A DNA stretch of 64,000 nucleotides from Candidatus Omnitrophota bacterium (lineage in GTDB: Bacteria; Omnitrophota; Gorgyraeia; Gygaellales; Profunditerraquicolaceae): NCBI GenBank assembly GCA_025453395.1, contig JALOQK010000007.1, positions 6,524 through 70,523 of the forward strand, written 5' to 3'. Made by a program: the position numbers and the translations under genes. Below the pieces are notes generated by a model. That model was not told the DNA's origin, did not search any database, and saw only the letters and a list, made by a program, of their open reading frames with translations. Below are positions 12,001 through 58,582 of the stretch, piece by piece (position 1 is the stretch's first letter; each line of letters begins with the position of its first letter).

Positions 12001-15000
12001 GCATTGTCTCCCACAGCAGTACGCACGCCAACACCGCGCTGAAGCGTATCGGGCGTGCCCTGATACTGCACAGAAACACTGTATAAATCAATCTTATTCC
12101 CAAAGGCATCGTAGAGATTAGTCACTTGAGCGTTATTATTAAGATTCCCATCGCCCCAAAAAGCATTATTCATATAAGAGCCTAAATACCCTTGTGGATT
12201 TTCTGATTCAACCAACTCCTTTACTTCTTGTTCAGTAAACACCGGCAGGTTAGGATATTTTGCTGCTAAATCTTTAGACATAGCATTAATTTCTTTTGCT
12301 TGCGCATTAAGGGCGCTCTTGTATTTCTGAACTTGCATAGATTGTTTGGCAATCTGGTCGCTTAAGTCCAGAACATTGTCTCTTGCATCCTGGAAGCGCG
12401 CCAATAATTCCCCAGCCTTTTTAATCGTCTCTGTGCGATTCCTAAGATACTCCATTGTTTTATCCATATCTTCGCCCATATCTTTCTTTAATTCTTCTAT
12501 ATAGGCGGTTATCTCCGGCAATGAAGCAATTTCATCTGTCTTATCATTTGAATTCTGGATTTTATTCAGGTATTCTTCAGCCTTCTGAACGTCATTGGCG
12601 GTCTTGGTAACATATTTATTAGCATCAACGATCAATGTGTCCTTTAATTTGTTGTAGCGCGCGGTAGCATCATTCAAACGCACCGACCAATAATCAATGT
12701 TCTTTTGTTTCTCTTCTGCGGGTATCCCAGAAGCGTTATTGGCTGCTGCAAGCTGTTGCTTAAGCCAATTAATGCTCCACTTATCATTTGATCCCAGAAT
12801 TGCAATTTCACTGGACAAAGCTGCCTGGCTTTGCAACGCCTTAGCATATTCCTGTTGGGCATAAGGGACTCCCTGTTTGGCAAGGTTAACTTTTGCCTGA
12901 ACATAACCCAATGACTTCTGAGCGTCATCCCATTGTTCAGTGGCGGCAGCCAACTGCGCATTAGCCCAACGTTCTGCGGAGCCCTGAGGATCTTTATACC
13001 ACTGTGATTCTGTGGGGACAGATCCTCGTCTGTCTTCCCAATTCTTCAAAGCATTAGTAGCATTTACTAAATCCAGAACCTCATCAAGACTTTGATCTTG
13101 ACCCGCTAACCTGCCCTTATATATCTGCGCCTGCGTAAGCTGCTGATTTAAACTATTAATATTAGCCTGTGCCTTGGGAATTAATTCATTGTAGTAAGCC
13201 ACTAACCCGCTATTCCCATTACTGATATATTTCTGGCGCAGGGAGTTTAATTGCGCCAACTCCTGCTGGGCTTGCGCGATTTCACCTGTTAAGGCGGTAA
13301 TACCGGAATCTGCTTTATTTAAAGCTTGATTATAATTTTCTTGGGCCTTTGTTTTATTTTCTTGCGCCGTTTCAATATTCTTATCAATCCACGCGGTTCT
13401 CTCGCCTGCCCACAAACCTGACTGGGTGATAAGATACTGCATGAACATTTTATTCTCTAAATCAATCCTTGTGTTCTCCTGCGCCTGTGGCAGGACACGG
13501 TAAACATTATTCAGCCATTCATACAAAGCTTTCTGATATTGATAAGAATGTACGTTTACGCTTAAGTTGTTTAGTTTAGTGAAATAATTAGATAAATCCT
13601 GATATACCTGCGGAACAGCTTCAGTAGATACTGCGGGAGTTGTCTCTAAGGCAGAAACATTGACTTTTTCTAATTGCTTTTGGATAACAAGCCCTGCCTG
13701 CTCTCTTGAAACACCGAGCTTCGTGCCGTCGGGCTGGGTAATATACGCAAATACATTGTTCTGATCAACCCCTTCTGCATATTTAACGGAATCGGCGTAT
13801 TCAATGACCCCGGGAATAACTGTTTTCTTGCCGTTGGCATCCACGCCTTCAGCTAAATACGGGGCAGCCCAGACTTTATTCACATCTGTTCCTAAAGTTA
13901 CCTTGTCTAAGCCATCACCAAAGTCAACCACGACCTTGTCTTTGGAAATCTTGCCTTGGCTGTGTAAAGCTAAGACATCGGCAACGCTAAGCCTATAAGA
14001 ATAAGGAGCGTGATTCTTGAAAGTATGCACAACCGCGTAAGGAACATCTACGACTACAGGCGTAACAAAAGCAAAATGCTGCTTGCCAAGCTTATACCCT
14101 AAATCTGAAGACCCAAATATATTTACTATTTTCTCATCCTGCTGAGTAACTTGCGTAATAGTATTTGTGTGGATCTTCCCATCTTGCCCGGTAACTTCAT
14201 ATGTATATTTATATTCTGTTCCCTTGGGAAGGATACCTGTCACAAAAGCTTCGTCTTTTTTAATATCAAATCTCACGCCGTCGCGCACAATGTATGCGGT
14301 CTGCACGCCCATTTTACCTTCGCGCATATACATTTTAATAAGCATATTCTCTAAACCGCCGATGGCAAATTGACGATTATAAGGATTTAAAGGCGCTTTA
14401 TCCATAAAGATGTTCTGCGCGTCTTCTCCCACAAAGGCGCCATTCTTAATAAGCGGGGCATCTGCAGATACAGTTACCGGAGAATCTTCAAAGCTTTGCG
14501 CGGGAGTGAAATTACCAGTAGATATATCGCTTAATCCGCCATTCTTAAGCATATTATGGAACATCACGTCTATATTGGCTAAGTCGCGCTGCCCTGTTAT
14601 GCGCATTAAAATATAAGGCTGTTCTTTCTCGGCCTGGTTGGTCAGCCAAGGCCAGAGATTCTGAAAACGCAAGAATTGCTCGGTAGATAAAGATAATTTT
14701 TCTTTGCGGAAGTCTATGGTCAGCTTGTCTTCGTCGCGATAATACATATTTGTCTTAGAAACAATCTCATTGGTATTTTTGGTTATATTCCTGCGATAAA
14801 TAATCTGTTCATGGGTATTTATGTCCGCGGACATCCAATACTGCACTTGATCATCAGTATCCGGCTCTTCCCCTGTTACCGCGCGGTAAGTAACTTCATG
14901 CTGCGCTAAAGACGGGAACACCACAACCGGGAAATTACGATACTGCGGCTGTTTAGTAAATAAAGCGCCGATAAGTTTATTTAAGGCCTCGCCAAAATTT

Positions 15001-18000
15001 TCCATATTGTAATAATCTGTCTTGTCATTGCCGAATTCGGCATTAAACTGATTCACCCCATCCTTGTTGACAATAGTCGGGAAATATAAATAAGCTCCGT
15101 ATTCAGTTTTGATAAGATAAATATTATCGTTCAACAGCGAACCATTCAAAATAATATTGGGAAGAATATTACCGAGGCGATGCTCAAAATCCACTCCTGC
15201 CTCTACGCGGGCAATCCAGGCATTAAGGCCAATCTTGGTCTGCTTGCCAACAGTAACACAACCAACTTTTCCTAAACGCAACCCCAGCAGAGTTCCATCA
15301 TCTTTCCCAAACAACCCTTCCTTGCCCAAGCCAAGGTTTAACCCAAAAACAGTCACCCCAAAACGGTCTACTACATCACCCTCATATTTAAGCGCTAAAC
15401 CGCCTATACCGTGGGCTATTTTGTGATACTTAGGAAGCTGCAGGATAGTAACGATATCATCATATAAAGCAATTGATGCCAAAGCGATATTGGTGCCTCC
15501 GGTGATTTCTTTCTGGCCGAACCCGTAGATAATATTTACTGCGTCTACTAAAGCGGCAACATCCCCGCCTAATTGAAGCCCAAGATAAGTATTCTTGAAT
15601 TTGCCTAAATTGATCATGGTATTGGCAAAATTCTGCTCTACAGCTATATAAAGCGAAACCAGATCATACAAATTCTTATCTTTGCTGGCCTTCAAAACCT
15701 CAAAATACGTCTGGCGAAGCTGTATGAATGCTTCATAGGCGCTTCCTAAGGTAGCCTCAAAATAAGCGACATCCCTGAATGACATATCTTCGGCAGAAAG
15801 CGCCATATTCTTCTTGCTAAGATTATCATCGCTATAATCTTCAAGCAGTGCGATCACTTTTTCGCTATTAACCTTTCCGGCCTGATCCAAAAGATTTTCA
15901 ACTTCTGCTTTAAGCTGGTTAGGTATAGTAATCTTCTGGCTGTTCTTCTTATCAAGCGCGTCTTGAGCAAAAGTTATTTCTTTATTTAATTTTAAGAGCT
16001 CTTCGCGCAATTCATCGCGGTTGCTGGAAATTTGGTCTCTTATTTCTTTTAGCTTTGCAGAATTCGTGGCTAAAATCTTATCCCGCTCTAATTTAATAAG
16101 CTCTATCTTTTCTTCTCTGGAAAGGTCATGCCCAGCCGCAACCGGCACATTAGGATCATTATTTACTTGAACTGGCGCTGTTTTAACATTCTGCCCTAAG
16201 AGGCTATTGCTTATCTCTTGCCCTAACTGCTTGATCTTTGTTTCTCTCTGGGCAATGCGCCCTTTGATTTCATTAATCTTCGCGTCAAGCGCGGCGATCT
16301 TGTCTTTAAGTTCGGTTATCTTAGCGAAATCATCCACCGCTACTTGGCTGGCGTAATTAATATATGTAAGCTTGGGTGAAAATTGATCAACTGGAGTATA
16401 AGCTATTGCCTGTGCTTGAGGGGCAACAACAGAATTCAAAGTTAAGGCGGAACGGAGAATTGTGCTTTGGGCAAAGCGCTTTAATAAACCGGGATGTTTT
16501 GGAGGACCTTTATTACGAGGAGCCTCTAACTGGATTTTATTTGGCAATACAATACTTTGAGGTTTAAGTGTTTCACCTTGGGATTTATCATCCTCAAGCC
16601 ACTTTTGCTGCATCGCGTCATAAACTGGCTTCTTAGAACCATCTGCTCTTAACCAACCCCAATAATCTTCTTTGTGATCCTGCTTATCCTGCTCTCCACC
16701 TTTTCTCTTGTTGTCCTCAAGGCTCATAAAGAAGATGCTTATGCCTTCTTCTTTTGCCTGACGCCAGATCTCTAATGCTGCCTGTTTCTGGAAATCTTCT
16801 CCCTCTTGGCCAGATACGCCAGCCTCAGCAACATATACAGGTTTAGCAATTCCTGCTCGCTTCTTGGCTAATTCATAAACGCTTACAATATCGCCTATAT
16901 TTCTATACCAATTAAGCCCGATCATATCTACATCGGTTTTCATTATTTGGGCAAGATGCGCAACAATATTTTCATCTCCTAATACCACAGAAATCTTTAC
17001 ATTTTCCCCAAGCTTCTTATGAATATCTTTGGCTAAACTATCCACTAATGCGAAATATTCTTCTATCGGCTTTCCGGTCCAGGCAGTATACCTGCCGGAC
17101 ATGTTGTATTCGTTACCCAACTCAAAAACGACTTCCATCTTGCCCTGTGCAAGTTTCAATACTTCCTGCATATAAGAGATTAAATTGCCTGAAGTCATGC
17201 TTATTCTTTCATCCATAGAAGGAACAACTTGGCCCCAGAAATTAGTAAGGTGATTATAGGCATAGCCGTCCAAAGGAATACCGATAGAAAGCACCTTAGT
17301 TTTTCCCTGCTCAATAATCACCTTTAAGATATCTGTACTTAGCGGATAATAGGTGCGTTCTGCGTTACCGATAAGGCGGACGACATCAGACTTATCGAAA
17401 GTCTGGGCATCAATAGTCAAGCCGTAGAACGGCTTGCCGTTCAATAAAGTCTGGGAACCTTCTAACTTTAAATCCGTCTGCTCTATTGCTGCCTCTTTAA
17501 CTTCTGCCATATCCGGCTCAATTGCTGCTAATTGCTCAACCAGCTTTACCTTCTCCTGCTGTAATTGATTTAATAACTGTTTATCATTTTGCAAATCTTT
17601 TTCTTCCTGCTGCAACAGTTCATTAAGGCTCTTTATTTCTGCGGAGACGGAAACATTTGGATCATTAACGCCTAACTGCGCGTTCTTTTTAAGGATGTCT
17701 GATAAATCCGCCAACAGCTTCTGGTTGGCGTTATGATCATACTGTTGATCAAAACCAAACTGCGGCATAAAAGAAGGCGTATGGTTAGGATCATTGTTTG
17801 CGAATGCTAGATTGCTACCGTTATATGAATTAAAATCAACACTTAAACCCGCCCATGCCCCTGCGACCAAAATAGAGAAGAAGCCAAATATTATGACAAG
17901 CCCTGCCCAAGGAGAATTTTTTCTTGTAGATACAGTTGCAGGACAAGCCTCCTGGCCAAAAACAGTGTTCAAGTTGCGCGCGCTTTCTCTTAAGGAAGCT

Positions 18001-21000
18001 ATGCTTTCCTGCAGAGCCTGAACAGCTTCTTTAAGCTTTTTATAAGCTGCCATTCTTAAAGTTCTCTTGGCAAGTTCCTCGCTTCTTAAAGCATCACCCT
18101 GCAATTTCAAAGCTTCAGACTTATTATAACGATAGCTAAAATCACTCTTAAGGCCGTTTATTATTGCCGCGTGTTCTTCTTCTAAAGAGTTTCCCGCCTT
18201 AGATATTGCCAGGGAAACTATATTCTTATAAGCGGCAAGGCTTAATATTGCTTCCGGAATAGCCAGCGCCATTTTTAAGGCTTGCGCATCAAAATTATCG
18301 CCTATTGTATCTATCATTTCCTGCTCAAGATATGCCCAGATAAGCTCTGCCAATTTTCTGCTCATCTTTTTCTGATCAGGTAAAACATTACCAAATTTGG
18401 ATAAATACGACTTAACCCAAGTATGATACTGGCTTAATGCCGCGTAAGTAAGATGTTCGGTGTTTGAAGGCGCCTGCGGCAAGGCTTCAATCTGACTACG
18501 AAGCCTTGCTATGCTGGCTTCGATTTTCTTCTCTTTACGCTGTAATTGCTTTATCTCTTCCAGAGCTTCCGGGTAAGCACCATTTATTTTTACATCTTTT
18601 TGCAGCTTACTTAACTGACTTGCTGCCTTTTCTTTCAACGCTTCTAACTGAAGAATCCTATCCGCAAGAGGGCTTACCTGCTCAGTGTATTTCTGCACTT
18701 TAGCGGAAACATCAGAGAATTTATTTTTTAACCCAGCCAGGAATTTGTAAGATTGGCCATTAAGAAATTCCGGCTTTGCCAGGCTTAATAATTTATTAAT
18801 TAGCAATAATACGCCTGCCGCGCTAAAGGCGATTATTGACACCGCCCAAGAAATCTTAGTAATAGCACCTAATGCCGCAGCGGGAATAAAAATTGCGATA
18901 AGCACGCTTACTGCTATAACTGCCACCGCCACCAGCACCGCGTTTATTCCAAACCCGCCCTCGCGATGGTGGTTTGACTTTTGTATATTTGTTTCCTCCT
19001 GCCGCTCTAATGCATACTGTGTTTCAATAATCTTCGCGTAAGCCATATCTTGTAAATCTTTATCCAAAGTAGAATAAAATGCCGCGTCAAATTCATTCCT
19101 TGCTTCTCTGTATTTGCCTTCTTTGAATAACATTTCTCCTGAATCAAAATGGCTTGCGAAATCATCCGAATTTTGAGCTATTGCCTGTTCCTGCGGCACA
19201 AGAGGAGCATTTACTAAATAATCCGCGCCATTGGCCTTGGCCAGCGCCCTGTCCATAGCCGCCCAATCATCCACCTCCCGGAAATATTGCGCAGATACGG
19301 TAAAAAATTCCTTGCTTGCCGCGATATTAGCGACATCGCCGGAATTAAGCAACGAATGGCCAAAATAGAAAGCAATCTTTGCCAAAGCGTAAAGCGTGTT
19401 ATCCGTAAGTTTCCTGCTTGCGTTGCTTTTTAATATATCTCGGGCGCGGCCCATTATTGTTTTTATATACCCATCTTCACCTGTTAAGTAAAACGCCTCG
19501 GCAAGGCCTGCTAAAGCTGTCAACTCTTTCATGGTGCTTAAGCCGGGAACACGAAGCGCTTTTCCGAAGAATCTAATTGCCTGCGTATAATTTTCCTTGC
19601 CCAAATAAGCCTGCGCCAGAGATATTAGAACCGCGTCTTTTTTTACCTCAAGTAAATGGTCTTTTCCTATGGCAAACAAGGCCCTCGTAAAATAACCAAT
19701 GGCGTTATTAAACTTTCCAAGCTCAAGCAACCTCATCCCTTCCAAATACTCTTGATCTATTAACTCAAGCGCGGCGACGCGGTCATCTTCCGTAGCAGCC
19801 CTGTCCTCTGCGTTAAGAATACCTTCTTCTTTGCGCATTTTACTTAATTCTTCCGAAGCGTATTTCAATAGATCATTGGCTTTCGTATCACCGGTATCAG
19901 CCAGCTTTAAATAGATGACGGCCTTTTCTAATAATACTATTTTCCGTAAGTTATCGCGTTGTGTAGACGCCATAGTAAGATAACATATTGCGATTTCAAA
20001 GCTAAGTCCCATATACGCCTTTTCTCTGCCTTTAATGCCGGCTACCATCCTGCGGGCTTTGTGAAAATGCCTGATGGCAATTATAGGTTTTCCGGCGTAA
20101 GAGAAAATCGAGCCAAAGTCATATTGCATCTTGTAATTATTCCTATAACGCTTTAATTGATGAATAATTTCAGCTGCTTCCACAATCGCTTTTATTTCTT
20201 CTGGCCTGGGGCCGTCTTTACTCTCAATAATCTTTGCAAAATCCTCAATCGCCGCTTCGGCAGGAAAAACAATTTCATTTACAATCGTTTTCTTTAAGTT
20301 AAAGCTGTTAAGCTCTGCCTTAACGCGCCTTGAATACCTTTTCATATCATATCTTCCCCATCTCCAGAAGAATGGCACCCCTGCCATTGCCATGCCTGCG
20401 GCAGCAGAGTGGTTTAACATTATCTGCGCCAAAATAATTAATCCGGCAACAAAAACGGACTTTAACACATTCAGGACAACTGCGCCAAGGGCGTTATCTT
20501 TATTTCTTAACCAATCAAGGGCTGCTTGCTTGGCCGCTAAATTTACTTCTAACTTATTTACCCGGAAGTCATCTTTTTTATTTTCGGCTACCGGTATAGC
20601 TAATTCTATCCTTGCGATCTGGCGTAATAAAATATTCTCCAGAGACTTTTTCTCATTACCGTTTAACCTCTGCCTTCTCCTGCCGTCTTTAAAGGTAACA
20701 TACACTTTTCCGGAAATCACTAACGCGTCAAATACGTCGCTGGAAAATGCGTATGTTACAATCTGTTCGTCGGATAGAGTATCGGCTGATGCGAGAGATT
20801 CTTTCTGCCGCGCAGTTCCACCGAATAACATATCTCTGGTTTTCGGGAAAAGCCAAAGTAACATTGCCAATGATGCTAATAGCCCAAACACGTAACCTAA
20901 TGACCCCACCTCAGTGCTAATATTACAATTTATAGCTTCCTTCGCTCCGGAAACCTGCCCTGCCTGAGCAGTATTAACCAGCAATGAAGCAAATAACATC

Positions 21001-24000
21001 ATTACTGCTACAGCTGCTGTCTTAATTGGCTGATCAGTAAAGAAGACTCCTACGCGCGTTATCAGAAGGGCGGTCTTTTTATATTGAACTGCAGAAGGAT
21101 ATCTATAATAAAGTTGCCCGCCGAAGGTGCCGCAAAATACTAAATTGTCCGGATTTTTATTATCGCCTTTTACCCAGGAAGGCTGGCTGTTCTTGGGAAC
21201 CATGGCCTTGGGGCTGTAATAAAGCACGGCGCCGCTGGTCGGATCGGCAATTTCTCCATCAAAAACGCGCTTTGCAAATATTTTGGCAATAGAAAGGTGC
21301 TTTGGGCTGGCTTTATAATAATTGGAGTTCTTATCCAGCACGCAGGAATAAGCGTATTTACGTAAGAAAACTGATTGTAAGGTTAAGGTGTATTTCTCGC
21401 CATTCTTGATTCCAAATTCTTTGGCCTTGCCTGACTTAACGCGGTTAACCGCATTCCAGACAATTGCAGAGGCCGCTTCTATATCTTCTTTGTCGCCTTT
21501 TTCTAATCCCGGCAGGAATTCCACGCCTTCACCGCAGAGTATTTTTGAAGCTATTTCAAGGTCTTGGTCATTGTAGGCGATAACCGGAGGCCCGGTAGTC
21601 GTAGGTTTAGCATTAAGAGCCACTTTCTTTATTGGCTGTTCATTTTTATTAATCTTAACAATGTTTTGCGATAACGTCTTTGTATTTGCCGCGGTCCTGT
21701 TAACCGCGCCTGCCGCGCCTGACCCCACGCCGCCGAAACCAAAGAGATAGAAAATAACCACCAAGAATTTATTCTTAAGCTTATCTTTAAAGGCAAGCCA
21801 TCCCAAGAATGGCACTGCTAACCAGGCTATGCTCAAGCTCTGGAGTATCGGGCCTAATCCATTAACCCCCATTGCCATTGCCGGCAGGCAAAGCAAAGCA
21901 GAGATTAAAATTGCGGCTATAGCAAATAATCTAAGCCCATTATTGTATTTTAATGCCGTGGGAGTGCGCTTAATAACCTCTTCTCTTTTTACTTGCGCGT
22001 TCTTTCTTTCAAAATAAGTCCTGATTATTTTAACCGCATCAAGAAATAATTTCTTAGTCAATTTAACAAAATCAACAAACATATACCCGATAGAAGTAAT
22101 GTCATAGACTTTTACGGAAGTCTTTGTATTCACCTTCGCGCCTGCCCCGGGCAATTCAGATGATCGTCGAAAGTCAACCGGCGGCACGCCCTTTTTCAAG
22201 ATCGTCGGGTTCTCTAAATTTGATAAAATCTGCGCCATTCTTGCTGCCCATTCAACACCCAAAGCTATCACGGCAAAAATACCAATACCAATGATAATTA
22301 AAGATATTTTATAAAATATCAATGCGGCTATCCCGATAGTCATAGTGATATTGGCAATCATAGCTATCTTATATATCCGTAACGCTATATATTTTTGGTA
22401 ACCATTTAACACCGGCAAGCTGTTATTGGCATATAAAGATAATGAAGATACTCCGGCTAAGAACCCTACAGCAGAAAGCGCCGCAATACTATTGAATATT
22501 TCTTTAACAGCCATTTCCGGGAAGAAAGCTTTTATGCCAAAAGCAATACCAAGGCCCGACGCCACAGTAATCATCGCGGCCTTCCAAACTTTTCGCGGAT
22601 TAATCTCTTGCTTTATTACCGCCATTTTATACATCTTATACAGTTTAAAATACACGCTGGCCGCTAAAGCTATACCTAAGAAAATAACTAAAGCCTTCAG
22701 AAATACAAGGTTGCTTAAGGCCCCCTGAACAACCTGCTCATTAAGCACAGTCTCTTGCCCTGCCTGCGCCTGCTGTGACATCAATAACACTGCCGAACCA
22801 ATCAGGGCCATCAAAATTCCAGACTGATGCGCATTAGAACCGCCCTTATCATTTTCATCTAAAGAAGATTTGGCATTCTTGTGGATCTGTTTCCTTTCAT
22901 GCCAAAAATATAAGTGTGCGCAGGATTGGACAAACGCAACTGCTCCCAATCCATAAATTGCTAAATCCTGTATTTCTGAGCCGTTTAACATCATGCCTGT
23001 CGTAAAAGGAAGCGCGGTTGCCGCCAAAATCATCCCCACCACAGAGCCATAACTTGTCTTAGGCAATTTTCCTGCAGACAACCTATTCATTATGGCGCTA
23101 TTTAATCTATCAGCCAACCCTGGATCTTCCTGAGAAATTCTATCTACAAAAGCATTAATAATATCAAATAAGAACTCTTTGTTTATTTCATTTTTACGGA
23201 TCATTCGCCTCAATGCACTAACCGATACCTTAAACTCAAATGCTATATCAGGAGTCTCTTTAACTGGACAAGCCAAATCACAGATCCTGGCTTTAAATAT
23301 TCCGTTTTCTTCTGTAATAATGATATTCTCTGGATTTGTAACTATATCGGTGGGGAATTGACCCTTAGTAAGAATATAGAACTGCGCGGCCATTATCCCG
23401 GCAGACTGGAAAATTGCGTGCATTTTGATTTTATCATCTTGGCTCATCTTGCCTTGTGTCATGAAAATCTTAATATAGCGCCTCAAATCAAGACCAGGCA
23501 AATACTCTTTAAAAATTACACGCATAGAGTGATTCTTTTTATTATAACTATAGCCATAATCAGCATACCCATATGGCCTCTGCAATATATTTTGTGCCAC
23601 GGCATATAAACGATGCAGATTGTCAAATTCGGCCTTGCTATGCTCTTCTAAATCCTGAATCTTAATACCCCTGAATTCCCTATCAATAGCCAAAGCAAAT
23701 TCTTTGGTCGTGTCATTTGTTTTAATAGTAACTTTATATACAAACCGATGAGCGCCCTCCCCGATTTTCTCTAAAGAAACTCCCCCTAAGACTATGTCCT
23801 TAATATCCTTTATATTCACTCCCAATTTGTGCGCAATATCATAGAGGTACTTGCCATGGAGATGCTCAATACCGTCATTGGCAACCGGCAGGAATAACGC
23901 GGCAACAGCTTTAAAATGAAAGTTATATTTCTTTGCCCGGGCAAAATTGTCACGGAGTTCATCACTAAAACGTATCTTCTGTATAATAGAAATATCTTGT

Positions 24001-27000
24001 TCGTCTAAAGCAACCCCTATAGCTTGCGTGAAATTGATAATTTTCTCTGACTGATTCCTTACGGCTTTATCAAAAATACTCCTGCTAGTGGCTAACAACG
24101 GCACTATTGCCAAAGCCATCCCACTATGCCCAAGATATTGCGCGGCATAATAAAATAAGCCAATAGTAAAAACAGCTAATATTGTGTTCACCACTGCGCC
24201 GGGCTTGGATGAATTAGAACCGTCCCCATTTTTCTTATCGAACTTAATACCTAAAGCTAATTCTAATTCCCGGATAAGTTTCTTTGATATCTTGATAAAA
24301 GTATTTGTATTTATAGCAGACAAGTAGAAATCTCCGTATTCTCTTACCATTTCAGCCCTAAGCACAAAATACTTCAGATCATCTGAACTCTTAACCCCCT
24401 TAACTTCTACTATCCGGCCTTCTTTCATCTTTACTAAATTCATGCCCGCTGCTGTAGATAATAAGGAATTTACAGTGTTGAAATAATAAATGGCCCTGAA
24501 TAAATTTATAGTAAAATACAGTGCTGCCAGGGTCATAAGCCCGCCAATGCCTAATATAATCGCCAAGCCGTGTTCTCCCACAAAGGCCATGGCGCGCTCT
24601 AATAAAGTAGCATGCACCTGCGGATCCATCTTAATTCCGGCGAAGGCATGGGAAGAAAGGAACAGCACTATACCGATCATGCCCACGATAGCGCCATAAC
24701 CTCTTACTACCTTACCGCCGTTTCTGCCCTGTCCGCCGTTACGCGCAAATGCGCATACATCAATATTGCCTCCTACGCCTTCGGGATTAGCCGGCTTCTT
24801 TTCTTCCTTAACAGGCTTTTTCTTAGACTGTTTTTCATTTTTGCATTTTTGGGGCAATCCAGAAGGAATTCCTTCTACAGGAGGAACTGGGCGCACACCA
24901 TTATCAGCAATAACTGGTTTAAGCGGCGACCAGCTGTTCCCGATCACAGCTATCATTAAGGTGGAAAACAGGAATATTGGGACGGGACTCTTTAATGCGC
25001 TTAAGCACAATTGCGGATTCATCTTCGGTAAGGAATTCCCAGCTGTCAATGCGGCCATTGCGGCTATAGACGTTACCAGTATTTTCATATACAAGGAATA
25101 TCCTGACGTGTTCGTGGTAGCGCGCCACAGCGAAGATAGTGTGGTCTTTTTCGAATATGACGAGATGGTCGAAACGGAGTTCTGGATCGGTGTAATTGAT
25201 CTTAACCATTGTACACCTCCTTGTTTAGAAGAAACAACACCCGCGCAATTCCAATTAGCGCGGGGTGTCTTGAGTTGTTTCAGGAGCTCCACAGCGCGGG
25301 TCAGTGTCCTGGAGGTCAGGAACGCTGCAGAGCTCCCAAAAACAACAATGCCGTTACTAATATTCCTGCCACGGAAGATATAGTTAACGGCTTGCCCTGA
25401 GTAAAATCGAAGGGCTTTGGTTAATAATTTAATTGATTGTGTGATTGTGGTAACAAATGCGCCTAATTTGGAAGATTTTTTGCTGATAGCTGACAAAGGC
25501 GGACTGCGGGCACTACGGTTTTCGCTGGGATTTGAATGGAATAAACCGGCTATAAACGACCAGATCCGCCTAAAAATAGGCGGTTTAATTACTTTTATTT
25601 GGGCTATCTGAACAGCACTTCCCGAACCACCGTTTCCAGAGCTGTTTGCACTATTGCCGGCTCCAGAACCTGCGCTGTTCTGATCTTTACTGTTTGCACC
25701 TGTAGAACTCCCCTCAGCCTGCGCCGAAACTTTTCCAGGCAAACTGCGGGCACCAACTATACTTATTACTAATGCTGCTGTTGCAAGTAATACACCTATT
25801 ACTACAAACCAATTTGTTTGCGCGAGTATTTGTTCAACGACTGCCTGTGCTTGCGCCAGCACAGCAGCCATATTAATACCGCCTGGCCCGCTTACGGCAG
25901 GGCCTCCGGTCTGTGTCCAATGAAGATGACTAATCGTGACTGGCAGGGTTACGCCTTGCGCGGCATTAACTAAACCTAAAATACCCAAAGCTGGGACAAA
26001 AGTCCTTGTGCCTAAACCTCCTACCACACTGCCAAAAGTATTTGGCGGCGTAGCCCTTGCCGGCGCCTGCGCAGGCAAAGCCTGATTCTGCCCCTTGGAG
26101 ACAGGTTTTTCTCCTGGCGCGGGACTACTCTGAGCGCCAATAGGCATTGCTGTAAACCCTGCAGCATGATCAAGATTAAGCGCTAAAAGTATTGCTTGGT
26201 CCGCAAGCGGCAAAGAGGCGATATTGGCTAATACTATTTCTTTTCCGCTCTCCATGCGCGCACTGCGCAGCCAATCCACAAGATTTGAAATATACACTGT
26301 ACTAACTTTAAGCTGGTTAGCCAAAAGCCAGTCTCTTACCTTAATAATATCCTGTTTGCTGGACCAATCCGCAGTAACGCCAATAATCCTGCCCTCTTTG
26401 GCCATTACCCTAATATTTCTGTAATTGGCTTCGTTGGAAAGCCAGGTTTCGTTACCGATTTTATCCAACCCGGACATTTTCTCCAACATGTTCAGGACAA
26501 GATAAAATTCTCCTTTTTTCATGAAATACTTAGCCCAGAACTTTTTAAGCGGCTCTTGCAGCTGCGCAGGGAACATAAGTGAGACTATGTTCCAAGCCTG
26601 TTTTCTTGCCGCGATAAAGTCTTTTTCGCTGGTATTGTCCAGCTTCCGGCTTATCGCGTCTTTAAGCTGGGATAAACTGGCATTTTCTAATTTCTGTAAT
26701 TCTCTTTCACTAAATTCCACTCCCGCAAGTAGTGCCAAATACTGCGCGCGGCTGCCTGACAGAGAAATTAACAAATTCCTAACCGGGATAAATATTTCCG
26801 CGCCAAAAGGATTGATATCCGCAATCACCAAGTAATCAAACCCACCTCTGGAAACCAAGGAAAGGTTTTGGCCGCCAAATCCAACACCCAGATAAACACC
26901 GCCTTTTACGCCCTGTAGTGCTTCATATCCGGCAGAAACGGTCTTGGTTTCGTTTGTCGCAAACCAATATCCGATATCATTAAGGTGCTGCTCTGTAAAC

Positions 27001-30000
27001 GCGCTTTCCGCAGCCGCTTCAGGATGATGTATCGGTAAGGCTTCTCCCTCTGTTGCCATATTATGAATAAGATTTGCTCGGCTTTGCGCTCTATCATAAG
27101 AAACTCCGCCTGAACGGGACAAAGATTCAATCAAACCATGCTCTAAGTCTTCTAAGGTCGCGGTTTGCGCAAGATAAATCGTGTTCGGATCCTCATCAAA
27201 AACAAATTCCCGGTCATGGTTTGAATTAAGCTCATAAAGGTTAGACATCAAAACACGCACTCCGGGGAACTGGCTGGCGCGTTCACCAATTTTTCCGCCT
27301 AGCGTAATCAATGAAGAATTATTAATGTTGCGGCTGGTTTCTCTGGCTAAACCTTCTTCTGCCACGCCGTGCCTTCCGGAGCCGGAAACCTGCTGATTTG
27401 ACGCGGGTTCTACAGCCGTGCCTTGTTCAAATAGCGATTCGCTGACCTCTGAACCGGGATGGACAACATCAATGGTTGTGCCGTCCTTAGAATTCCATTC
27501 CAGCAATAACGCTTCGGGAACAGGCGCATTAGAATAAGACGCTGCGATTTCACCGTCTTTGCCTATGCCAGTTTCTGCGGCGTAGCGATACGCGTCGGAC
27601 CACTGGGCAACACGCCATTCTTTGGATGCCTGATCAAACAAATACACCCGCGCTATGCCATTTTCAAAACCAAGAAGCACCTTAACGCCTCTATACGCCA
27701 AAAGATTAAGCGCGTTATTAAAGTTTGCGGCATTCTCACCACTTGTAAAGATGGCATGCTGATGCCAATCATGAAGCCCTGCATCTTCACCGCCTGTATT
27801 GCCGTGGAATGATTTTACCCTGCGTATTTGACCGTCAGCAGTCTGCATATAAACAGATCCCTGCTCTGTGGTAAATACGCGCACTACCGGTGAGCCGTTT
27901 GGCGCGGCTAATTTACCTTGCTTGGCCAAGTCCACAATAACCTGTCTTATCCTTTGCATAAGCTGTCCTACAACATCGGCTCCGGCGTTATTCGCGGCAA
28001 GCTGTTTCAATTCATCAGAAAGCTTATCAATCTGCTGCCATGCTTCGCCTGCCTCTGCCGATGCATCAACCTTATATTTCTGCGGGTCGCCCTTCTTTTG
28101 CTCAAACTTCACATCTTTAAGCTTTATCTTCTGGCCGTTGATCTCTATCTCCGGGTCCTCTCCGATACAAACTTTGATCTTGGCGTTATTAAGGTCGGTT
28201 TCCTTGAGTTTGTTTATAACTGTTGTTTTCTCGCTGATATTTATATCTAACTCGGCTGTGCCGATGACCTCGCCCTCATTGATGATTTCAACTTTGGTAT
28301 CATGGATGCGCACGCGGCCGGTCAACTCTGCCGGGGCCCCTCCTTTAACCACCACTTCGGCGTTCTGGACATCGATTTCCAGCTGTTGCTGGGCAGCATA
28401 TTTTGTCTTCACCAATTCTTGGGCAAGTTCTGCGGCGGCTTTGTCTTCAGAATTAACTTGAGCTGGAGATTCTTGGGCTGGCTGGGTTTCTTGGATAGGC
28501 GTTGCTGCTAAATAACCTTGTGCTCTCCTAGTCATCTGAGCGATAAAAGAATCCCCTATCCTAAGTGCTGTTTTATCACCAAGAATGACTTCTCTTCTAT
28601 GGTCTAACTCTAAAATACCTCCTGACATGCGGCCATTGATTTCAATAACATACAGCTTTCCTGTTTTATCGGCCATAAGGTCTATACTGGCATAATCCTG
28701 TTGGAGATTCCCTTTCTCTCCCTTACTTAACATATCAGCTTCCGCCTTATTCTGCATAGCCTCAAAGGCGGCGATAGAAACTTCTTCAATTCTCTTCATC
28801 TCTTCATCCGAACTAATACCTCTTGCCTTTAAGGCTTCTTCAAAAGTAAGAATTCCTCCGCCTTGAGAGATATTTACAACTCCACCTACCCGGCCGGTTC
28901 TTACAGAAATTGCCATTACCCTTGGTTTATTATCTGCTCCACGGGTGATAAAAATACGGTAATTCCAATCATACTGATTATCGCCAATCTTAATAACTGG
29001 CGGAATAATCCTACTCTGAAGCATAACGCCTGCCTTATACTCTCTATCCTTACGAGCAAGCAGTATTTGATCTACAACTTCATCAACCGTAAGCCCTTCT
29101 TTAAGTACGCGAACACCATAACCGCCATACCAATCCAAAGGCTTAATAACCACCCCACCGGGTAAATTTATTTCGCCCTGGCTAAGGCCATATAACTTCC
29201 TTACTGCAGCGGCCACTTCTTCTCTATCAGCATTTCTTGAGAATGTAACTGTACCGGGAATGCTTACGCCGGCGGGTTGGAGAATTTCCATGGTAGTTTT
29301 CTTGCTATCTTCATACTCTTCAAAAAGCTTATTACTGGAAACTGGCACTCCCATATTTTCAATCTCCAAGAAACGCTCGTTGCTAATAGGCCGGAAACTA
29401 TGTACATACCCCACGCGCACAGGTACAGAATAGCGAACAATTTCGTATTTACCTTCGCGGAATCTTATGCCCTTATTAACATACACACTGTTACCCTTGA
29501 TGATCAAATCTTCTGCCCTATCAACCCAAACTACTTCTACGGGGTGGCCAGATGCCGTGGCTCTTAAAAGAGCAAAATTAGCAAGATTGCCATCGTTATA
29601 CGCATACCTACCTATCATAACAACTGCACCCGAATGAACCGCGGCGTCTTCAACGACCCCCGGGACTAAATCGAAATCTGAACCAGCTAAATATCTAGGT
29701 AATTGCTGACGGAAATTATCTAATTGTGCCCTGAATCTCAACAAATCAGAATCCTCAAGAAGTCTCTGCTTATATTCAATGGCACGTCTATACGCCAGCT
29801 CTATATAATGATTGAGTAATTCATTGGCTTCTTGCGTCTGGCCAGAAGCTATCATTACTTGTTCTGCATGCCAAATGCCACCTGATGGATTACCGTTAAC
29901 CTCTATAACAACTGGCTCAAGCGAACCATCTGCACTCTTACGAACCATTACATCAATACCAGAAAAATCATGCTGATTACCGATAAACTCAACTGTATCA

Positions 30001-33000
30001 TTGCGCCTATATGCATCAACAATAGAAAATGCGGCTACGGCTTTAACTTTTATCTTTTCTATAAGCTGCTTTGTCTCTTCTTGGCTTAAGCCTAATTTCT
30101 GACAAACCTGCTCTATGGTCATAGCGTGGGCAGTCAAACTAATATTAACGACTTTACCTTCACTATCAACGCGTACGCCCATGCCGGTATAAACCGGATT
30201 ATTATTAGCATCACGAGATACAAATACTCTCAAATTCCAATCTTGAGGAATCCCGTTTTCTTCAAAGAGAGGTGGTACTATTCTCTCCTGCATAATAACG
30301 CTATGATCTCTTTTTAATAAATCTACTATGGCTTTTGCTATCTCTTCATCAGATGCGTTTGACTTAAATACCTTAACTCCAAATCCCGCCCACCCGTCAG
30401 ATGGCTTAACTACGACTTCTTGCCCATGCGCTAACCTGAATTTACGGACTAAACTAATAACATCTTGAACATTACCTTCCCCTCTTATTACTGATGGTGC
30501 TAACTTTATGTTTCCTTCATTGTCAATATCAACAAAAAGTAATTCGTCGCTGTGTGATTTATTTACTGCCTCCGATAAACCCACCCTATCTCTCTCGGGG
30601 GCGTTTGACAGCACAAACGACATAGACGACGGAGCAGCTACGCCGTTCTCTTCCAATAAAGCATTAACCAAGGGCTTATTCCCAGCAGTATACTCAAAAC
30701 TATGCGATTCAGAAGTAGGAACCAGCAAAGGCTCTTCTGTATTGTTCTGCGCACTATTATTAGAAGTATGTGGATACTGCGCCCAAACATCGCCGTTTCT
30801 GTATAATAAGTAATGCGCCTCAACCGGCCTTGCGGAATCGGAGAAGTTCGCGAGAACAAATCTATACTGATGCCCTTTAGTTTTAATTAAAATTAATGCT
30901 CTCTTAATAAATACCCTTCCGTCCTTGAAAATTACCCATGAAGGATCCAAAACAAACAAAGCATTTGAATCTGGCTGAACTACCATATTACGAGCAAGCA
31001 CAGTAACTTCGTTATGCCCAATAATATTTACGCCTTTAGACGAACGGCCTTCCAAATGTATGATGTTGGGGGCGTTTTCCTTAATAAATTTATAGCCGTC
31101 ATCAGTTACTTCAATATCTAACACAACCCCGCCCTCTTTGATCTTACTGCCGACTCTTAATAACTCCAGAGCCCTTAAAGCTTCTTCTTTGTTTGGTGTA
31201 ACGATAGCATTAGATGACGATGCATTAGTTACGGGCTCGTCAGAAGTACGGATTAAATTTTCCGCGGCATCTACATTAGTAAATGTGGTTTCTTGATTAA
31301 CACTAACTGACTTAGATTCTTTTGTTTCATGATCTAGTTGATAAGCATAGTAATCATTTCTACCTACTGGCTTGATAATCACATGGCCCTGTTTATCCAT
31401 AGAAACATCAAAATCACCCAATTTTGTATAAATACGCCTGGGAGCTAATAAAGCGTCTAATTCAAATTCAACAGAAATAAATTCTTGGGGATTGGTTTTG
31501 CTACGGATATCAATCTTGACAATCGCGGGCTCTTCTGCTTTATTAGAAGATACTTTCTGTACAATAATATTTACTTCTTGTGCTAGTTCATAGGCGGGGG
31601 CTTCCCTAGAAGCTGAAGGAGTAGAAACTCCTTCGGAATTAAACTTAACTTCCGATTCTTCTTGTTTAACCTCGGCGGCATCCGGCGGGGCGTTTTCCTG
31701 CTTGGGGTCTGATTTCTTGCCCTTATAATCATACGCAGTAATGCTAATCTGGAATTTCTTGCTGAACAAACCCTTACCTTTAATATCAATATCATAGCCG
31801 CGGCCAATACCTGTTGCTTTATCAAAATTAAGCTGGTCAATAAACTGGCCGTTTTGAAGTTTATCTTTGGAAATTACCACTTCTTCATTTTTATCTCCCA
31901 CCTTAACATCAAAGACTAACACATTGAAGTTTCCTTTAGTTAAACGGAACTTGCTTACTGCGGTTTTTAATATCTTATCTATAAATCTTCTTGCCGGAGC
32001 CTGCACATCCGCGTAAAAATCAAATTTATTCGCTGGTACTAACTGGCCGTTGCGGTCAACCCGCAAAACATTCTCTTGGTTTGCCTTTTTGTCTTGGTAT
32101 TGCCCTTTGACTGCCCCAAAGAAACCTTTGGATAATGTAATAGTCCCGGTGCCGATATCTACTGTAGAGCTTGCGTTCAAATCCACAATTTGGGTTTTCT
32201 TTACCCGAGGCGCATTTGCATCCGCTCCCGGAACATACCATTCCAAAAGCAAAGTTCCATCTGCCTGCTGGGTAATGGTAATTCCTCCAAGAACCCAGCG
32301 CCTTCTGCCATCTTTACTATTAACTTCTGTCTTATCATAAGCCTTAGTAACATCAATTTTGGCATTCTCGCGGGCAACAGGAGAATTATCCTGCGGCACG
32401 CCCCACCTTTGCGTTAAGAACATTGGAATACCATAATCATCGGCGTTAGTCAGTTCTACTCCTGCCTTCATCGCAGATAAATACGCCTTAATGTAATTTT
32501 CCCGGTCAAAGCCCTCATAATAATTCCAATCTGTGCGCCATCCCAGATTAGATGCCCTTAATAATGGATTCATGAATTGCGCCAAACCAAGCAACATCCT
32601 AGTTGTAAAATATGTCCCTCTTTTAGTATCATATTTCAGGATAAAATCCTGCGAGCCCGGACGGAATTCTACCCATTTATTCGCGCTTAAAACCTGATAA
32701 GGAGTAAAACTATACGGTGTTCTTAAACCGGGGTCTACCGGTGATATTTTTATCTTGCCATCGGCATCAAAATCTGCCACAAACCCGTCTTGATAATAAG
32801 GCGCTAATTTTTTAATGTCTTTCTTCTTTAAGTTTCTGCCATTTGAGGCATCCTTCTGGGCCCAGAAAGCGTATTTAAGGCTCTTATTGATCAGGCTCTT
32901 TTGGGCATCTACTATATTTCTTAAATTTAACCCTCCCAAATCGCCAAGAATATTGTATGAAATAATATTCCTAAATATATTAAGCCTAGCCGCATCTCTT

Positions 33001-36000
33001 ATGGCTTGGGTCTTTAATTTCTCTTCTGAAGCTACTACTGAATTTCTATAGACAAAGTTTTTTAAACTATTTATAAAATTTTGGACTGGATTCATAGCCT
33101 TTAAATCATCTTTGGCCTGCTGGGTTATACCATTTATATAATGAATGCTTCTGCCGGATAAAGAACGGGCTAACCCCTCCTGCACAAACTCAAGTTTAAG
33201 CTGAACATTGCCCGCTAAAATTGTTTTCCCGGACAACAAACTCACAATATCCGCGTCATTAAGCCTGTCTGCCAAAACCTGCTGCGCGGCAAAACGCACT
33301 TCTTCAGAGGCATCAAACTGCGCTAAATGCAGCAAATCAGTGTTGCTGCTGCTAGAAGATAAAGAAATTCTGTTGGCCATAATCTTTAATTCACGCACAT
33401 CCTGGCTGTTTAAATCAAGGGCTTCTTCGTCATGGAAAGTTATTTTTACGTCTCTTTGTTCTAACGCCAAAATATCCTGCACTGTCTTTTCCTTATCCTG
33501 ATCAGACAACGACCAGAAATTATTAATCCTATTTCTTAAATCATCTGCGTCGGGAGGATTCTTTAAATCTTTTCGGTTGTAATCTAATGCCTCTACTTCA
33601 GCGTCAAAAAGCCCTAAATGCGTGGAAGGAGCAGCTGGTGCGGCATTGTGGATTTCCTGGATTTTATTTATTACCTCTGGAGTAGCCTGATTTAAATAAT
33701 TAGCAGAATAATCAGAGAAGCTGATATTTAAGTTTTGCGCATTCTGCCTATGACCGTTTAATTCAGCTAAAGCATGCTCTACTGCCTGTTCTAATTCTGC
33801 CCCTTCCAAAGAAGCATCCACATAAATAACCCCTCTTCTTAATCCTACATGCTCTAACGCACCAGAGGCATCTTTTAATCCGCGTACTCTCTTAATCTGC
33901 GCCTGCTGAGGCATAAATTCTATCTTGTGCGAACCTGCCGGCAAACTGGACACCACCTGCTGGCCGTTAGCAGATATACTAACTACCGGAGCACTGGGAT
34001 TATAATTTTGTGTTGCATTAGCAGCAATAACCGCGCCTGATGAATTGCCTGACGCAATATTTAAATCATTCCCGTTTTGAGTAACTGTTACTGCCTGATC
34101 GCCATAATTGGTAATGGTTGTCTGGCCATTAGGACTAACCTCAATTACAATATTGGGCAGTGCCTGATTTTGCGGCAAGGTAACGCCGTTTAAAACACCG
34201 TTTACATTTACTCCGCCTAAGACCGTCGTGTCCACGCCAGGGACATTGATGTTGGTACCGCCGTTTTCCGCAGCAATAACCGCATCTACATGCCCGGCTG
34301 GAGTAACCCCGATTCCGGTATTGGAAACAGCCGGGTTAGAAGGGTTTGTCTGATTCTGAAAACGATTATTGGGAATATTAAAATTAAGGTGCGCAGAAAG
34401 AGTATTTGTGTTCGGATGCCGGTCATAGGCTTCCTGGAACCACTCCATCACCTGCTGATAGACTGCCTGTGCATAAGCATAATCTTCTGCTGAAGTATAA
34501 TCAATCCTTCTTGGAGCTGCGGCAATGCCGCCTGTTCTGTCAAATATCACCCTCATTACTGCGTTGGTAATTTGTTCTCTAAAAGCTTCTTCTCCGAAAA
34601 AGTCTATAAAACCTCCAACTCTATTCCGCAAAGCTTCATTCTTAATTGCTCCGGCCAATATTCTGCCATCGCCTAGAACGTCAGCGATAAATGTCTGTAT
34701 CTGTGACAATATAGGTATATTCATCAAGCCTTCATACAGAATTGGCCTGACAAAATGCATGGTCGGGCCAAAAGTAAAGGCAACCTTTACGCCTTCCCAC
34801 GAAGAAATGGACATCTGATTAGCCGCATATTTTAAAGAACCAAAAATAGATCCGTCTTTTAAGTCTTGGATCCGGTTTAAAATATTTTCTCTCTCTGCGC
34901 CATGGACAGTTCCAACACGCTGCTCTAATTCTGTTATCTCTACAGCCCTTTGCAGTTCCCAAAGGCTTTTACCGTGATTAGGATCAATGCCTAATTCTAA
35001 TGCCCTGCGGGCCATTCCCGGGCCGACAATCCCCTCTTCGTCCAGAATAGTAGCAGTAACCACTTCTCTTATCCGCATTGATTTATCTTTATCGCTATAG
35101 GAAGATTTTCTGATTAAGGCAATAAGGTTCTTGGCTTTCTCGGCTTTCTCGGGAGCGACATTTTTAGCAAGAAAATCTTCTGCGCTCTGGCGGTTTTCGT
35201 CATGCATCCAAGCTAAAATCTTATTCGCCGTATCAACACCAATCTGGTCAAGATTAAACATCTGACGCACCTGCTCTGCTACCCAGCTTTCCTTGCTAAA
35301 CTTACCATACAATAATAAATTCTCTACTATCGGAAAGGTCGGCATCATCAGGGCCAATTGCGGAACCATATGCCGCGCTTCTTGCGCCAGATTACCCACA
35401 ACCTGCCAAGGAGTAGCGGTTATACCCTTAAAAGTAAACCACTCTACATATAATTTATTCGGATTCAAAAGCCCGGGAGCTAATATTTTAGTGCCTAATA
35501 ACGCCCAGTTAACTGCTTCATAGATTTGTTCGTGCTTAGAAATAAAATCACTGTGAGGAGCTCCAAATATCCAGCCAACAGTTAAAGCCCATTCTGCCAG
35601 ATTCCCGCCTCTAAATATACCAAGTAACCCCTTAGAATCATTGCCCCACAACCTGCCCTTAACTTCTTCTCGCCACCACTTAAGAGAATTTTCTTTAAAA
35701 TTAAGCTTTTCATTACTGCCACCTTCGGCTCCTAGGCGCCGCGCCAAAGAAACCATAAGCCATGTATTATTAAAATTACGTATAGTATCTGCAAAAACCG
35801 GGCCAATCACCCCGCCATTTTTAAACTCTTTGCCAAAAATCTTTCCCTGTTGTAATACATCTGTGCCAATATCCACCACTGCCCAGACATAAAGAGAAGG
35901 GGATTTCACAAAACCCAATAGGTTCTTTTCGATTAAAGTGCTGCGCGCATCAAACTCAATCTTATCGAAATCAAGATTGCCCTTTTTGGTTATTAACTCT

Positions 36001-49452: not shown

Positions 49453-49599
49453 TTTTGAGTTTTTAAGCTCTTTGTGAAACTATTTGTTATCAACTTAAAA
49501 AGAAAACCGGACTGTCAAATACCTGATTTCTCGTCGGTATCGGCAGCCCGGCTATCTTAAGCTTTTACTTTTTCGCTTTACTTTTTTCGCTTTTAAGAT

Positions 49600-49620
49600 C
49601 CGTGGCTTTGCGCCCTCCGA
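49600..49620 (-). promoter_or_regulatory. Conserved leader motif CCGTGGCTTTGCG-N-CCTCCGA (+ strand), copy A. A partial second copy CCGTGGCTTTC lies at 49645-49655.
   Basis: The same 13-mer plus CCTCCGA recurs at 58524-58553, at the same relative position (about +20 to +60) downstream of a second TTGACA/TATAGT promoter. Confidence 0.5.
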
Positions 49621-49669
49621 TTTCTCGGAGTTTGCCTGTTCGTTCCGTGGCTTTCTTAACGACACTTGA

Positions 49670-58342: not shown

Positions 58343-58480
58343 ATCCCGACGTTACGCTTCGCGTAAGTCGGGATTATTTCGGCCAAACGATTTACGTTCA
58401 CTTCGTTCCGTAAATCGTGGCCTCAATAAAAAAGCCGAGTTACCAATATAAACCTTTTTTAGGCTTTCGGTAACCCGGCT
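58343..58480 (-). promoter_or_regulatory. Structured 5' leader: three consecutive stem-loops between the promoter and the first flp gene
   Basis: H1 (58343-58374) pairs atcccgacgttacgc with gcgtaagtcgggat. H2 (58381-58422) pairs a perfect 10-bp acgatttacg with cgtaaatcgt and has GGCC clamps. H3 (58433-58480) pairs agccgagttacc with ggtaacccggct. None is followed by a U-tract on the coding strand. Confidence 0.5.
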
Positions 58481-58523
58481 AACGTTGTCGCTTTTGACCC
58501 TCCAGAAATTGCGAGCAATCGTC

Positions 58524-58553
58524 CCGTGGCTTTGCGTGGCCGCCGACCTCCGA
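58524..58553 (-). promoter_or_regulatory. Conserved leader motif CCGTGGCTTTGCG...CCTCCGA, copy B
   Basis: Identical 13-mer plus 7-mer to the copy at 49600-49620. Confidence 0.5.
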
Positions 58554-58582
58554 CAGCCGTGCTATTTCGTTGCCGCAATCAA

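Follow-up and report, generated by a model that had tools for sequence, protein, structure and literature searches.

The gene comS lies inside srfAB, a surfactin synthetase gene of Bacillus subtilis; its product of 46 amino acids is translated from the mRNA of the large gene, and the arrangement belongs to a narrow Bacillus group. Phages also carry embedded genes, such as Rz1 in Rz of lambda and E in D of phiX174, in compact viral genomes that are under size pressure and where both products are functional proteins. Here we describe a segment of a 64,000-nucleotide stretch from a Candidatus Omnitrophota bacterium (assembly GCA_025453395.1, contig JALOQK010000007.1, positions 6,524 to 70,523; hereafter the window, numbered from its first letter). 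This segment very probably constitutes an autonomous small cistron, made up of a leader RNA, a Shine-Dalgarno sequence, an ATG and a gene for a protein of roughly 90 amino acids, nested in the -1 frame of an Omnitrophota-type giant gene. Among known systems, comS inside srfAB would be its closest analogue, with the phage embedded genes next. As with comS, a very large multi-module gene wholly contains a short independent gene that is read from the same strand in another frame and has its own start; as with the phage pairs, a complete gene occupies an alternative frame and both frames are kept open. Unlike comS, the nested gene encodes about 90 amino acids, its nesting is conserved across a phylum-level group, a dedicated, covarying leader RNA also lies inside the host reading frame, and the host-frame peptide is apparently an unconstrained passenger. 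Unlike in the phage cases, a cellular gene serves as host; it exceeds 46 kb, and openness alone seems to be selected in its frame. In contrast to both analogues, this host ranks among the largest bacterial genes known.

Giant proteins of the Archaeovorin type are described for Omnitrophota (West-Roberts et al., bioRxiv 10.1101/2023.11.21.568195) as exceeding 7,000 amino acids and combining an N-terminal C39 peptidase with many transmembrane segments and mixed enzyme domains. The host gene of the window has the same make-up: a length above 15,000 amino acids, a Peptidase_C39 domain at residues 183-261, many transmembrane-like segments and mixed enzyme domains. The close relatives of the locus, moreover, are all Omnitrophota metagenome-assembled genomes (MAGs). 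Term searches of that preprint and of a 2026 Omnitrophota preprint turned up neither a nested gene nor any RNA element inside a giant gene, and literature searches gave the same result. An earlier note on this stretch had drawn attention to an anomalous segment of a giant open reading frame (ORF) that stays open with an S/T/N/G-rich translation. The translation is as quoted there, and the minus-strand frame runs open from 46301 to the window edge, a total of 15,433 codons with a first ATG at 46292. The nested-gene segment corresponds to about residues 6868-7134 of the giant protein and lies just after DUF7790; a transmembrane-like helix (residues 6831-6851) precedes the G/S/N-rich linker of this region.

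A codon-usage model trained on the giant ORF, with which 1,534 scoring windows were evaluated, set the region at about 25,570-24,820 apart from the rest. The giant-frame codon log-likelihood falls here to -4.23, the lowest value of all (mean -3.897, standard deviation 0.071), and it is at this place alone that a same-strand alternative frame outscores the giant frame. The winning frame is that of a 96-amino acid ORF, which the earlier note had placed at 25209 to 24919 and which we confirm from ATG to TAA. Its frame, labeled +1 in that note, is indeed an alternative one, but measured from the giant frame its offset is +2, equivalent to -1. The GC skew is -0.004 in 25001-26000, compared with about -0.15 elsewhere. 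Weaker dips in the giant-frame codon score were seen on the minus strand at about 4900-4400 and 3760-3460, where the translation is very hydrophobic and membrane-like. In neither dip does the sense strand contain an ORF of 40 codons or more with a GGAGG Shine-Dalgarno sequence, and both are probably a composition effect of this hydrophobicity. A plus-strand ORF of 205 amino acids (24766-25383) had the best antisense codon score; we discarded it as a shadow of the small gene, given the lack of a Pfam match and a frame that is open in only 13 of 40 related loci.

The homology search that the earlier note had proposed for the 96-amino acid product was productive. We found 11 homologues of 88-106 amino acids with identities of 51-63%, and a full profile search gathered 184 clusters at 50% identity, nearly all of them 80-110 amino acids long. 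In a 12-sequence alignment, the start and 22 residues are invariant. AlphaFold2 modeled the product with a pLDDT of 86.5 and a pTM of 0.77, as four beta strands, a helix and a fifth strand. Pairwise nucleotide differences at small-frame codon positions 1, 2 and 3 are 0.344, 0.258 and 0.585, respectively; the most variable of these, the third, is the second codon position of the giant frame. Translated in the small frame, the sequences share 57.5% of their amino acids, against 32.5% when the same bases are translated in the giant frame. This substitution pattern shows, insofar as comparison of related sequences can, that purifying selection at the amino acid level acts on the small frame. Since substitutions follow the small frame and giant-frame identity is low, the giant-frame peptide over the small gene appears to be a passenger, with the absence of stops as its only visible constraint. 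One suggestion of the earlier note, that a linker harbors the small ORF by chance, is contradicted by the homologues, the purifying-selection pattern and the confident predicted fold.

Searches of Pfam, NCBIfam, PDB sequence profiles and, with Foldseek, of PDB and BFVD gave no family, solved-structure or fold match for the small protein. The best PDB fold matches were weak and were to propeller-blade designs (E >= 0.13, TM about 0.27). One FG-GAP-like repeat protein matches the small-protein profile over residues 31-65 (E = 3.6e-5), a weak resemblance to a single beta-propeller blade. By exact protein look-up, the window's small protein has no record as a called gene. Recorded homologues come mostly from short contigs, which fits suppression by gene callers wherever the giant ORF is intact; on short contigs, gene callers cut the region into three genes. 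We also encountered database "proteins" of 220-316 amino acids (P0083 and P0122) that are chimeras running from the giant frame into the small frame, and that probably arise from indels in low-coverage assemblies; they illustrate how gene callers are misled at this locus.

Scanning species-representative genomes yielded 42 loci that encode relatives of the small protein, nearly all of them in Omnitrophota MAGs, and 40 of these contain a complete small gene. Most scanned contigs carry the family at a single locus. In each of the 40 complete loci, the giant frame, which is +1 to the small gene, has no stop inside the small gene, while the third frame is open in none. The giant frame stays open over the entire fetched locus, up to 20 kb, in 37 loci. 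With synonymous resampling, the mean probability of remaining open is 0.27 per gene for the giant frame and 0.0001 for the other frame, giving a joint probability of about 1e-23.6 if loci are independent; the null used the codon usage of these same small genes and is conservative. Every family copy in these loci, second paralogues included, lies at the +2 offset from the giant frame and never in the giant frame itself. Among distant homologues, the free-standing ones in L046, L047 and L050/L051 have 7, 6 and 3 stops in their +1 frame, and the nested ones in L045 and L049 have 0. The comparison with orthologous giant genes that had been proposed alongside the homology search thus finds both frames kept open in 40 of 40 loci, and the overlapping gene that the earlier note listed among its possible explanations is strongly supported, with the same nesting throughout. 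These data show, as far as frame statistics allow, that the host frame has been kept open across the small gene and its leader by selection, not chance, in every related genome examined.

If the giant ORF were untranslated here, the region would in effect be intergenic, lying between two genes with a frame open by inheritance or chance. The giant-frame codon usage, the worst of the whole ORF at this point, is what such an account would predict, as are the poorly conserved giant-frame peptide (32.5% identity) and the division of the region into three genes by gene callers on short contigs. It leaves unexplained why the frame is open in 40 of 40 loci at about 57% small-protein identity, where 27% would be expected per locus, and why only 1 of 228 stop triplets of the RNA element described below falls in frame despite register shifts between loci. 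In free-standing homologues the corresponding frame is interrupted by 3-7 stops, just 13 of 40 loci leave the antisense shadow frame open, and no strong internal Shine-Dalgarno sequence with a start is present that would restart the downstream modules. We therefore consider an untranslated giant frame improbable.

Two further observations concern the family itself. A second, divergent paralogue of the small gene (82-83 amino acids, e.g., beginning MCRNYNDLEFTHFVV) occurs in L009 (6856-7104), L029 (9737-9988), L022 (about 10328-10525) and L025 (3659-3895). It too lies in the -1 frame of the giant ORF, with its own RNA element and Shine-Dalgarno sequence in L009 and L029. In L047, a distant free-standing member, P0084 (1814-2188, 124 amino acids), stands between mraZ and rsmH, with more genes of a putative division and cell-wall cluster after it; this setting may hint at the context and function that the family had ancestrally.

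The small gene has the translation signals of a gene in its own right. The sequence AAGGAGGTG occupies 25222-25214, bearing out the strong ribosome-binding site that the earlier note had reported, although its spacing to the ATG is 4 nt, or 6 nt from the GGAGG core, rather than the 5 nt given. Of all GGAGG motifs in the giant ORF, and whatever the frame considered, only the one at 25220 has a start codon 4-10 nt downstream that opens an ORF of 40 codons or more, and the motif is rarer in the giant ORF than expected from codon shuffling (29 observed, 52.4 +/- 7.1 expected). In nearly all loci, AGGAGGUG lies 5-8 nt before the ATG, and of the 121 GGAGGT motifs in 595 kb, 36 fall within 16 nt upstream of a nested ATG. 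Transcription signals gave a different picture. No sigma-70-like promoter is conserved upstream of the RNA element (mean best score 6.67, against 6.08 for controls, with none at 9/12), and a promoter scan of the window listed nothing relevant; the internal transcription unit that the earlier note had considered accordingly finds no support.

Given that the small frame lies at -1 to the giant ORF, ribosomes could in principle reach it by programmed -1 frameshifting, so that the upstream polypeptide would end with the small domain. An internal Shine-Dalgarno-like sequence and strong RNA structures are indeed nearby, and AAAUUUA is in register at the 5' edge of the RNA element in a few loci. This heptamer is not conserved and is absent from the window, and no slippery heptamer of the form X XXY YYZ is conserved among the loci, which do not show the features of a -1 frameshift site. 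Moreover, the -1 frame is closed until 1-45 codons before the nested ATG (5 codons in the window, 1 in L034), the ATG and its spacing from the Shine-Dalgarno sequence are conserved as they would be for initiation, and the free-standing homologues are normal small genes. Frameshifting is thus very improbable.

Upstream of the Shine-Dalgarno sequence lies a larger conserved RNA of roughly 145 nt, at 25407-25261. It is a separate element from the hairpin noted earlier, and the earlier note had not seen it. The window copy scores 98.7 bits (E = 1.5e-23) with our covariance model, R1. The model locates copies in essentially all loci; all of them are on the sense strand, and most stop shortly before the Shine-Dalgarno sequence. 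The modal position of the core motif is -57 nt from the ATG, and a CCUCC sequence lies about 45-57 nt upstream. RNAalifold, run on 28 copies, returned a helix P1 and a long helix P3, with compensatory changes at 16 of 20 pairs and 91.6% of cells paired; none of 500 column shuffles reached the observed values, and slid controls were 38-59% paired. Folding of individual sequences recovered P2, with its GUGGCA loop, in 40 of 49 copies on stems of varying sequence, and also found P4, which presents the invariant CCUCC. As a single sequence, the 211-nt leader region of the window adopts the same architecture (-83.1 kcal/mol, z = -5.34).

The element does not keep a fixed register with the giant frame. 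At CGUGGC, the giant-frame phase is 2 in 20 loci and 0 in 5 (window included); at CCUCC, it is 2 in 18 loci and 1 in 9; and UGACC never has its UGA in frame. The element contains 228 stop triplets across 36 loci, of which a single one, in L002, falls in the giant frame. Covariation and shifting register together show, as sequence comparison permits, a leader conserved as RNA structure and not as giant-frame peptide. No Rfam 15 family matched at its gathering score, the best hit in the window region being Leu_leader-like at 18.3 bits versus 50. An Rfam 15 scan of nine related loci likewise gave no match, and that of the whole window gave only two c-di-GMP-I riboswitches, both elsewhere.

Additional copies of the RNA occur outside this position. 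Tandem arrays of 2-5 copies were found in L017 (9415-9923), L029 (9415-9727), L007 (2226-2677) and L004/L006 (about 9000 and 9770), and weaker solitary copies lie several kb from the small gene, with no small ORF after them, in L022 (16426), L029 (16726), L019 (14179) and L030 (12384). The RNA might accordingly be the primary unit, acting on the giant transcript or its translation through processive antitermination, pausing or processing at a module boundary, with the small gene a mere neighbor; this would be partly compatible with an autonomous cistron. Tandem or distant copies without a small gene (L022, L029, L019, L030, L004/L006) speak for such a role. So do the several loci where the element comes directly after a "HE..A...TH.EN" module and before transmembrane or signal-like segments, and, in the window, the terminator-like hairpin right after the element. 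Yet the best-scoring copies almost always lie immediately 5' of the small gene, at the modal -57 nt; the distant ones are far weaker (25-51 bits, against about 100), and the invariant CCUCC loop faces the small gene's invariant GGAGG. We regard an RNA-centered unit as unlikely, while giving it more weight than the other alternatives raised here.

The coordinates of the elements that make up the proposed cistron, and of the surrounding host features, are collected in Table 1.

Table 1. Features of the nested cistron and its host gene in the window
Feature	Coordinates	Strand	Details
Nested small gene	24919..25209	minus	96 codons + TAA; ATG 25209; frame -1/+2 relative to giant ORF; product family about 90 amino acids
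Shine-Dalgarno sequence AAGGAGGUG	25214..25222	minus	GGAGG core 6 nt before ATG
Extra GC-rich hairpin (25267-25238) and U-rich tract (25237-25227)	25227..25267	minus	arms CACCCCGCGC / GCGCGGGTG, 11-nt loop
Conserved structured RNA element	25261..25407	minus	helices P1-P4; wholly inside giant ORF; only copy in window
P1 (GCCGUUA / UAACGGC) around P2 hairpin UUCC-GUGGCA-GGAA	25350..25391	minus	invariant GUGGCA hexaloop 25372-25367
Long helix P3	25274..25346	minus	arms 25346-25323 and 25297-25274
P4, small hairpin at P3 tip			CCUCC 25315-25311 (anti-Shine-Dalgarno-like, invariant); then invariant bulge CUGACC 25304-25299
Low-complexity G/S/N-rich linker of giant protein	25610..25720	minus	about residues 6861-6897; weak Pfam GRP match
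Giant ORF	3..46292	minus	>15,433 codons, runs off window end; Peptidase_C39 near N-terminus, ATP-grasp domains, DUF7790

Between the RNA element and the Shine-Dalgarno sequence, the window carries an additional hairpin. The earlier note had described an inverted repeat and T-tract at this place; both are present, with the arms corrected to CACCCCGCGC and GCGCGGGTG at 25267-25238, and TTGTTTCTTCT following at 25237-25227 (UUGUUUCUUCU after the stem). The hairpin folds at -17.7 kcal/mol (z = -3.55). The reading of it as a terminator is doubtful, as the hairpin is present in just 2 of about 42 loci, being shared by L008 alone with a single compensatory C-G to U-A change, and our terminator scan, given the 11-nt loop, did not list it. 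Other lineages have different inserts here, or none, and the hairpin could be a lineage-specific expression platform.

This arrangement invites comparison with known regulatory leaders. Like riboswitches and protein-binding leaders that sequester the Shine-Dalgarno sequence, the element has covarying helices and invariant loops immediately 5' of the Shine-Dalgarno sequence, as well as a complementary CCUCC. The lineage-specific hairpins between core and start, one of them terminator-like, resemble the alternative expression platforms of riboswitches. It differs from riboswitch leaders in matching no Rfam 15 family and in its location within an ORF whose reading continues across it, a very unusual place for a leader. 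The position of the CCUCC loop opposite the invariant GGAGG, with lineage-specific hairpins between the two, suggests control of access to the Shine-Dalgarno sequence.

The immediate flanks of the cistron are not alignable between loci by tblastn, and modules several kb to either side are partly syntenic. Failure of the flanks to align, together with the tandem copies and the second paralogue in some loci, would also be seen if RNA and small gene formed a mobile or selfish cassette that had inserted repeatedly into giant genes. Against such a cassette, most contigs scanned have a single small-gene locus, and the gene keeps to the sense strand and to one relative frame without ever interrupting the giant frame; the partial synteny of giant-gene modules a few kb away also argues against it, and no integrase, transposase or terminal repeats were seen. 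We attach very little probability to repeated insertion.

An autonomous nested cistron would operate as follows. Ribosomes translating the giant frame would read straight through; the upstream modules would thereby be joined to the next module, whose start is signal-peptide-like, by a passenger peptide that is S/T/L-rich and unconstrained. At the internal Shine-Dalgarno sequence and ATG, free 30S subunits would initiate independently, so that the small protein would be made as a polypeptide of its own. Access to that Shine-Dalgarno sequence is probably controlled by the leader RNA through the CCUCC loop of its hairpin, and in the window and L008 the added terminator-like hairpin may take over this access-control role.

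Several points weigh against an autonomous cistron of this kind. Translation of either frame here is deduced solely from patterns of selection. The loci are related by descent, so the joint probability of open frames overstates their independence. In five loci, the giant-ORF frame switches 0.1-1.9 kb upstream, between two long overlapping open stretches in an indel-like pattern (in L002, the switch is inside the RNA element), and these switches may be real gene boundaries rather than indel errors. The CCUCC loop and the GGAGG are both invariant, so that their pairing gives no covariation signal. RNA copies with no small gene after them may mean that the RNA has a role beyond being the leader of this gene. 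Lastly, no function is assignable to a small protein without a family, structure or fold match.

As for the origin of the nested cistron, neighboring operon genes were most likely welded into one frame by loss of stops, with the weld passing through the only alternative frame of the small gene that can stay open at little cost (mean probability 0.27, versus 0.0001 for the other). The earlier note had offered a remnant of a fusion junction as one explanation; this idea holds to the extent that it is consistent with the free-standing homologues and with the signal-peptide-like segments just downstream. The giant protein contains many such internal segments, ending in AxA motifs (HAFAG, AQAG, AMAMG), for example at residues 7201-7222 (about 24700-24635), about 7825-7847, 8125-8145 and 8425-8447. 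One begins shortly downstream of the nested gene, and the same pattern follows the nested gene in many related loci. The segments suggest that the giant protein is a chain of formerly separate secreted proteins.

The giant ORF also contains a recurrent, possibly metallopeptidase-like module with the pattern "R[AGS]PP ... HExxA/H ... THxEN", found in the window at about residues 14640-14700 and 15337-15410. The HExxA/H module is also present upstream of the RNA element in L024, L029 and L011, and in some loci its end (NLTQPQ) is the exact start of the RNA element; the window sequence at 25540-25410 (SARSPP...) may be a degenerate copy. At the other end of the giant gene, the window holds two c-di-GMP-I-type riboswitch aptamers on the minus strand, at 49538-49645 (60.5 bits) and 58466-58573 (37.8 bits), both above Rfam gathering scores. 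The first lies about 86 nt upstream of an ORF of 1052 amino acids (49452-46294, minus strand) that has no Pfam match. The TAA of this ORF ends 1 nt before the giant-gene ATG at 46292, which itself lacks a strong Shine-Dalgarno sequence. It is thus possible that the giant gene is the second gene of a c-di-GMP-controlled, translationally coupled operon.

A broader and distinctly more speculative proposal, which we put forward tentatively and consider doubtful as it stands, is that Omnitrophota giant genes are operons welded into single frames, and that the weld described here preserves an autonomous cistron along with regulatory RNA of a new class. By sensing either a ligand or the small protein itself, this RNA would choose between production of the small protein and continued transcription and translation into the downstream half of the giant protein, and the small protein would be a dedicated partner of the giant protein, for example in its assembly, processing or regulation.

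The arrangement described here bears on the expression of bacterial genes of 50-250 kb and on the reasons for their evolution. From it, translation is predicted to start internally on the giant mRNA. It also points to a blind spot in gene calling, where standard gene callers suppress a small-protein family, and the structured RNA, located inside an annotated ORF, is beyond the reach of surveys for structured RNAs that are confined to intergenic regions. The nested cistron with its own leader would be a molecular fossil, indicating that at least one junction of the giant ORF is a fusion across a still-independent gene.

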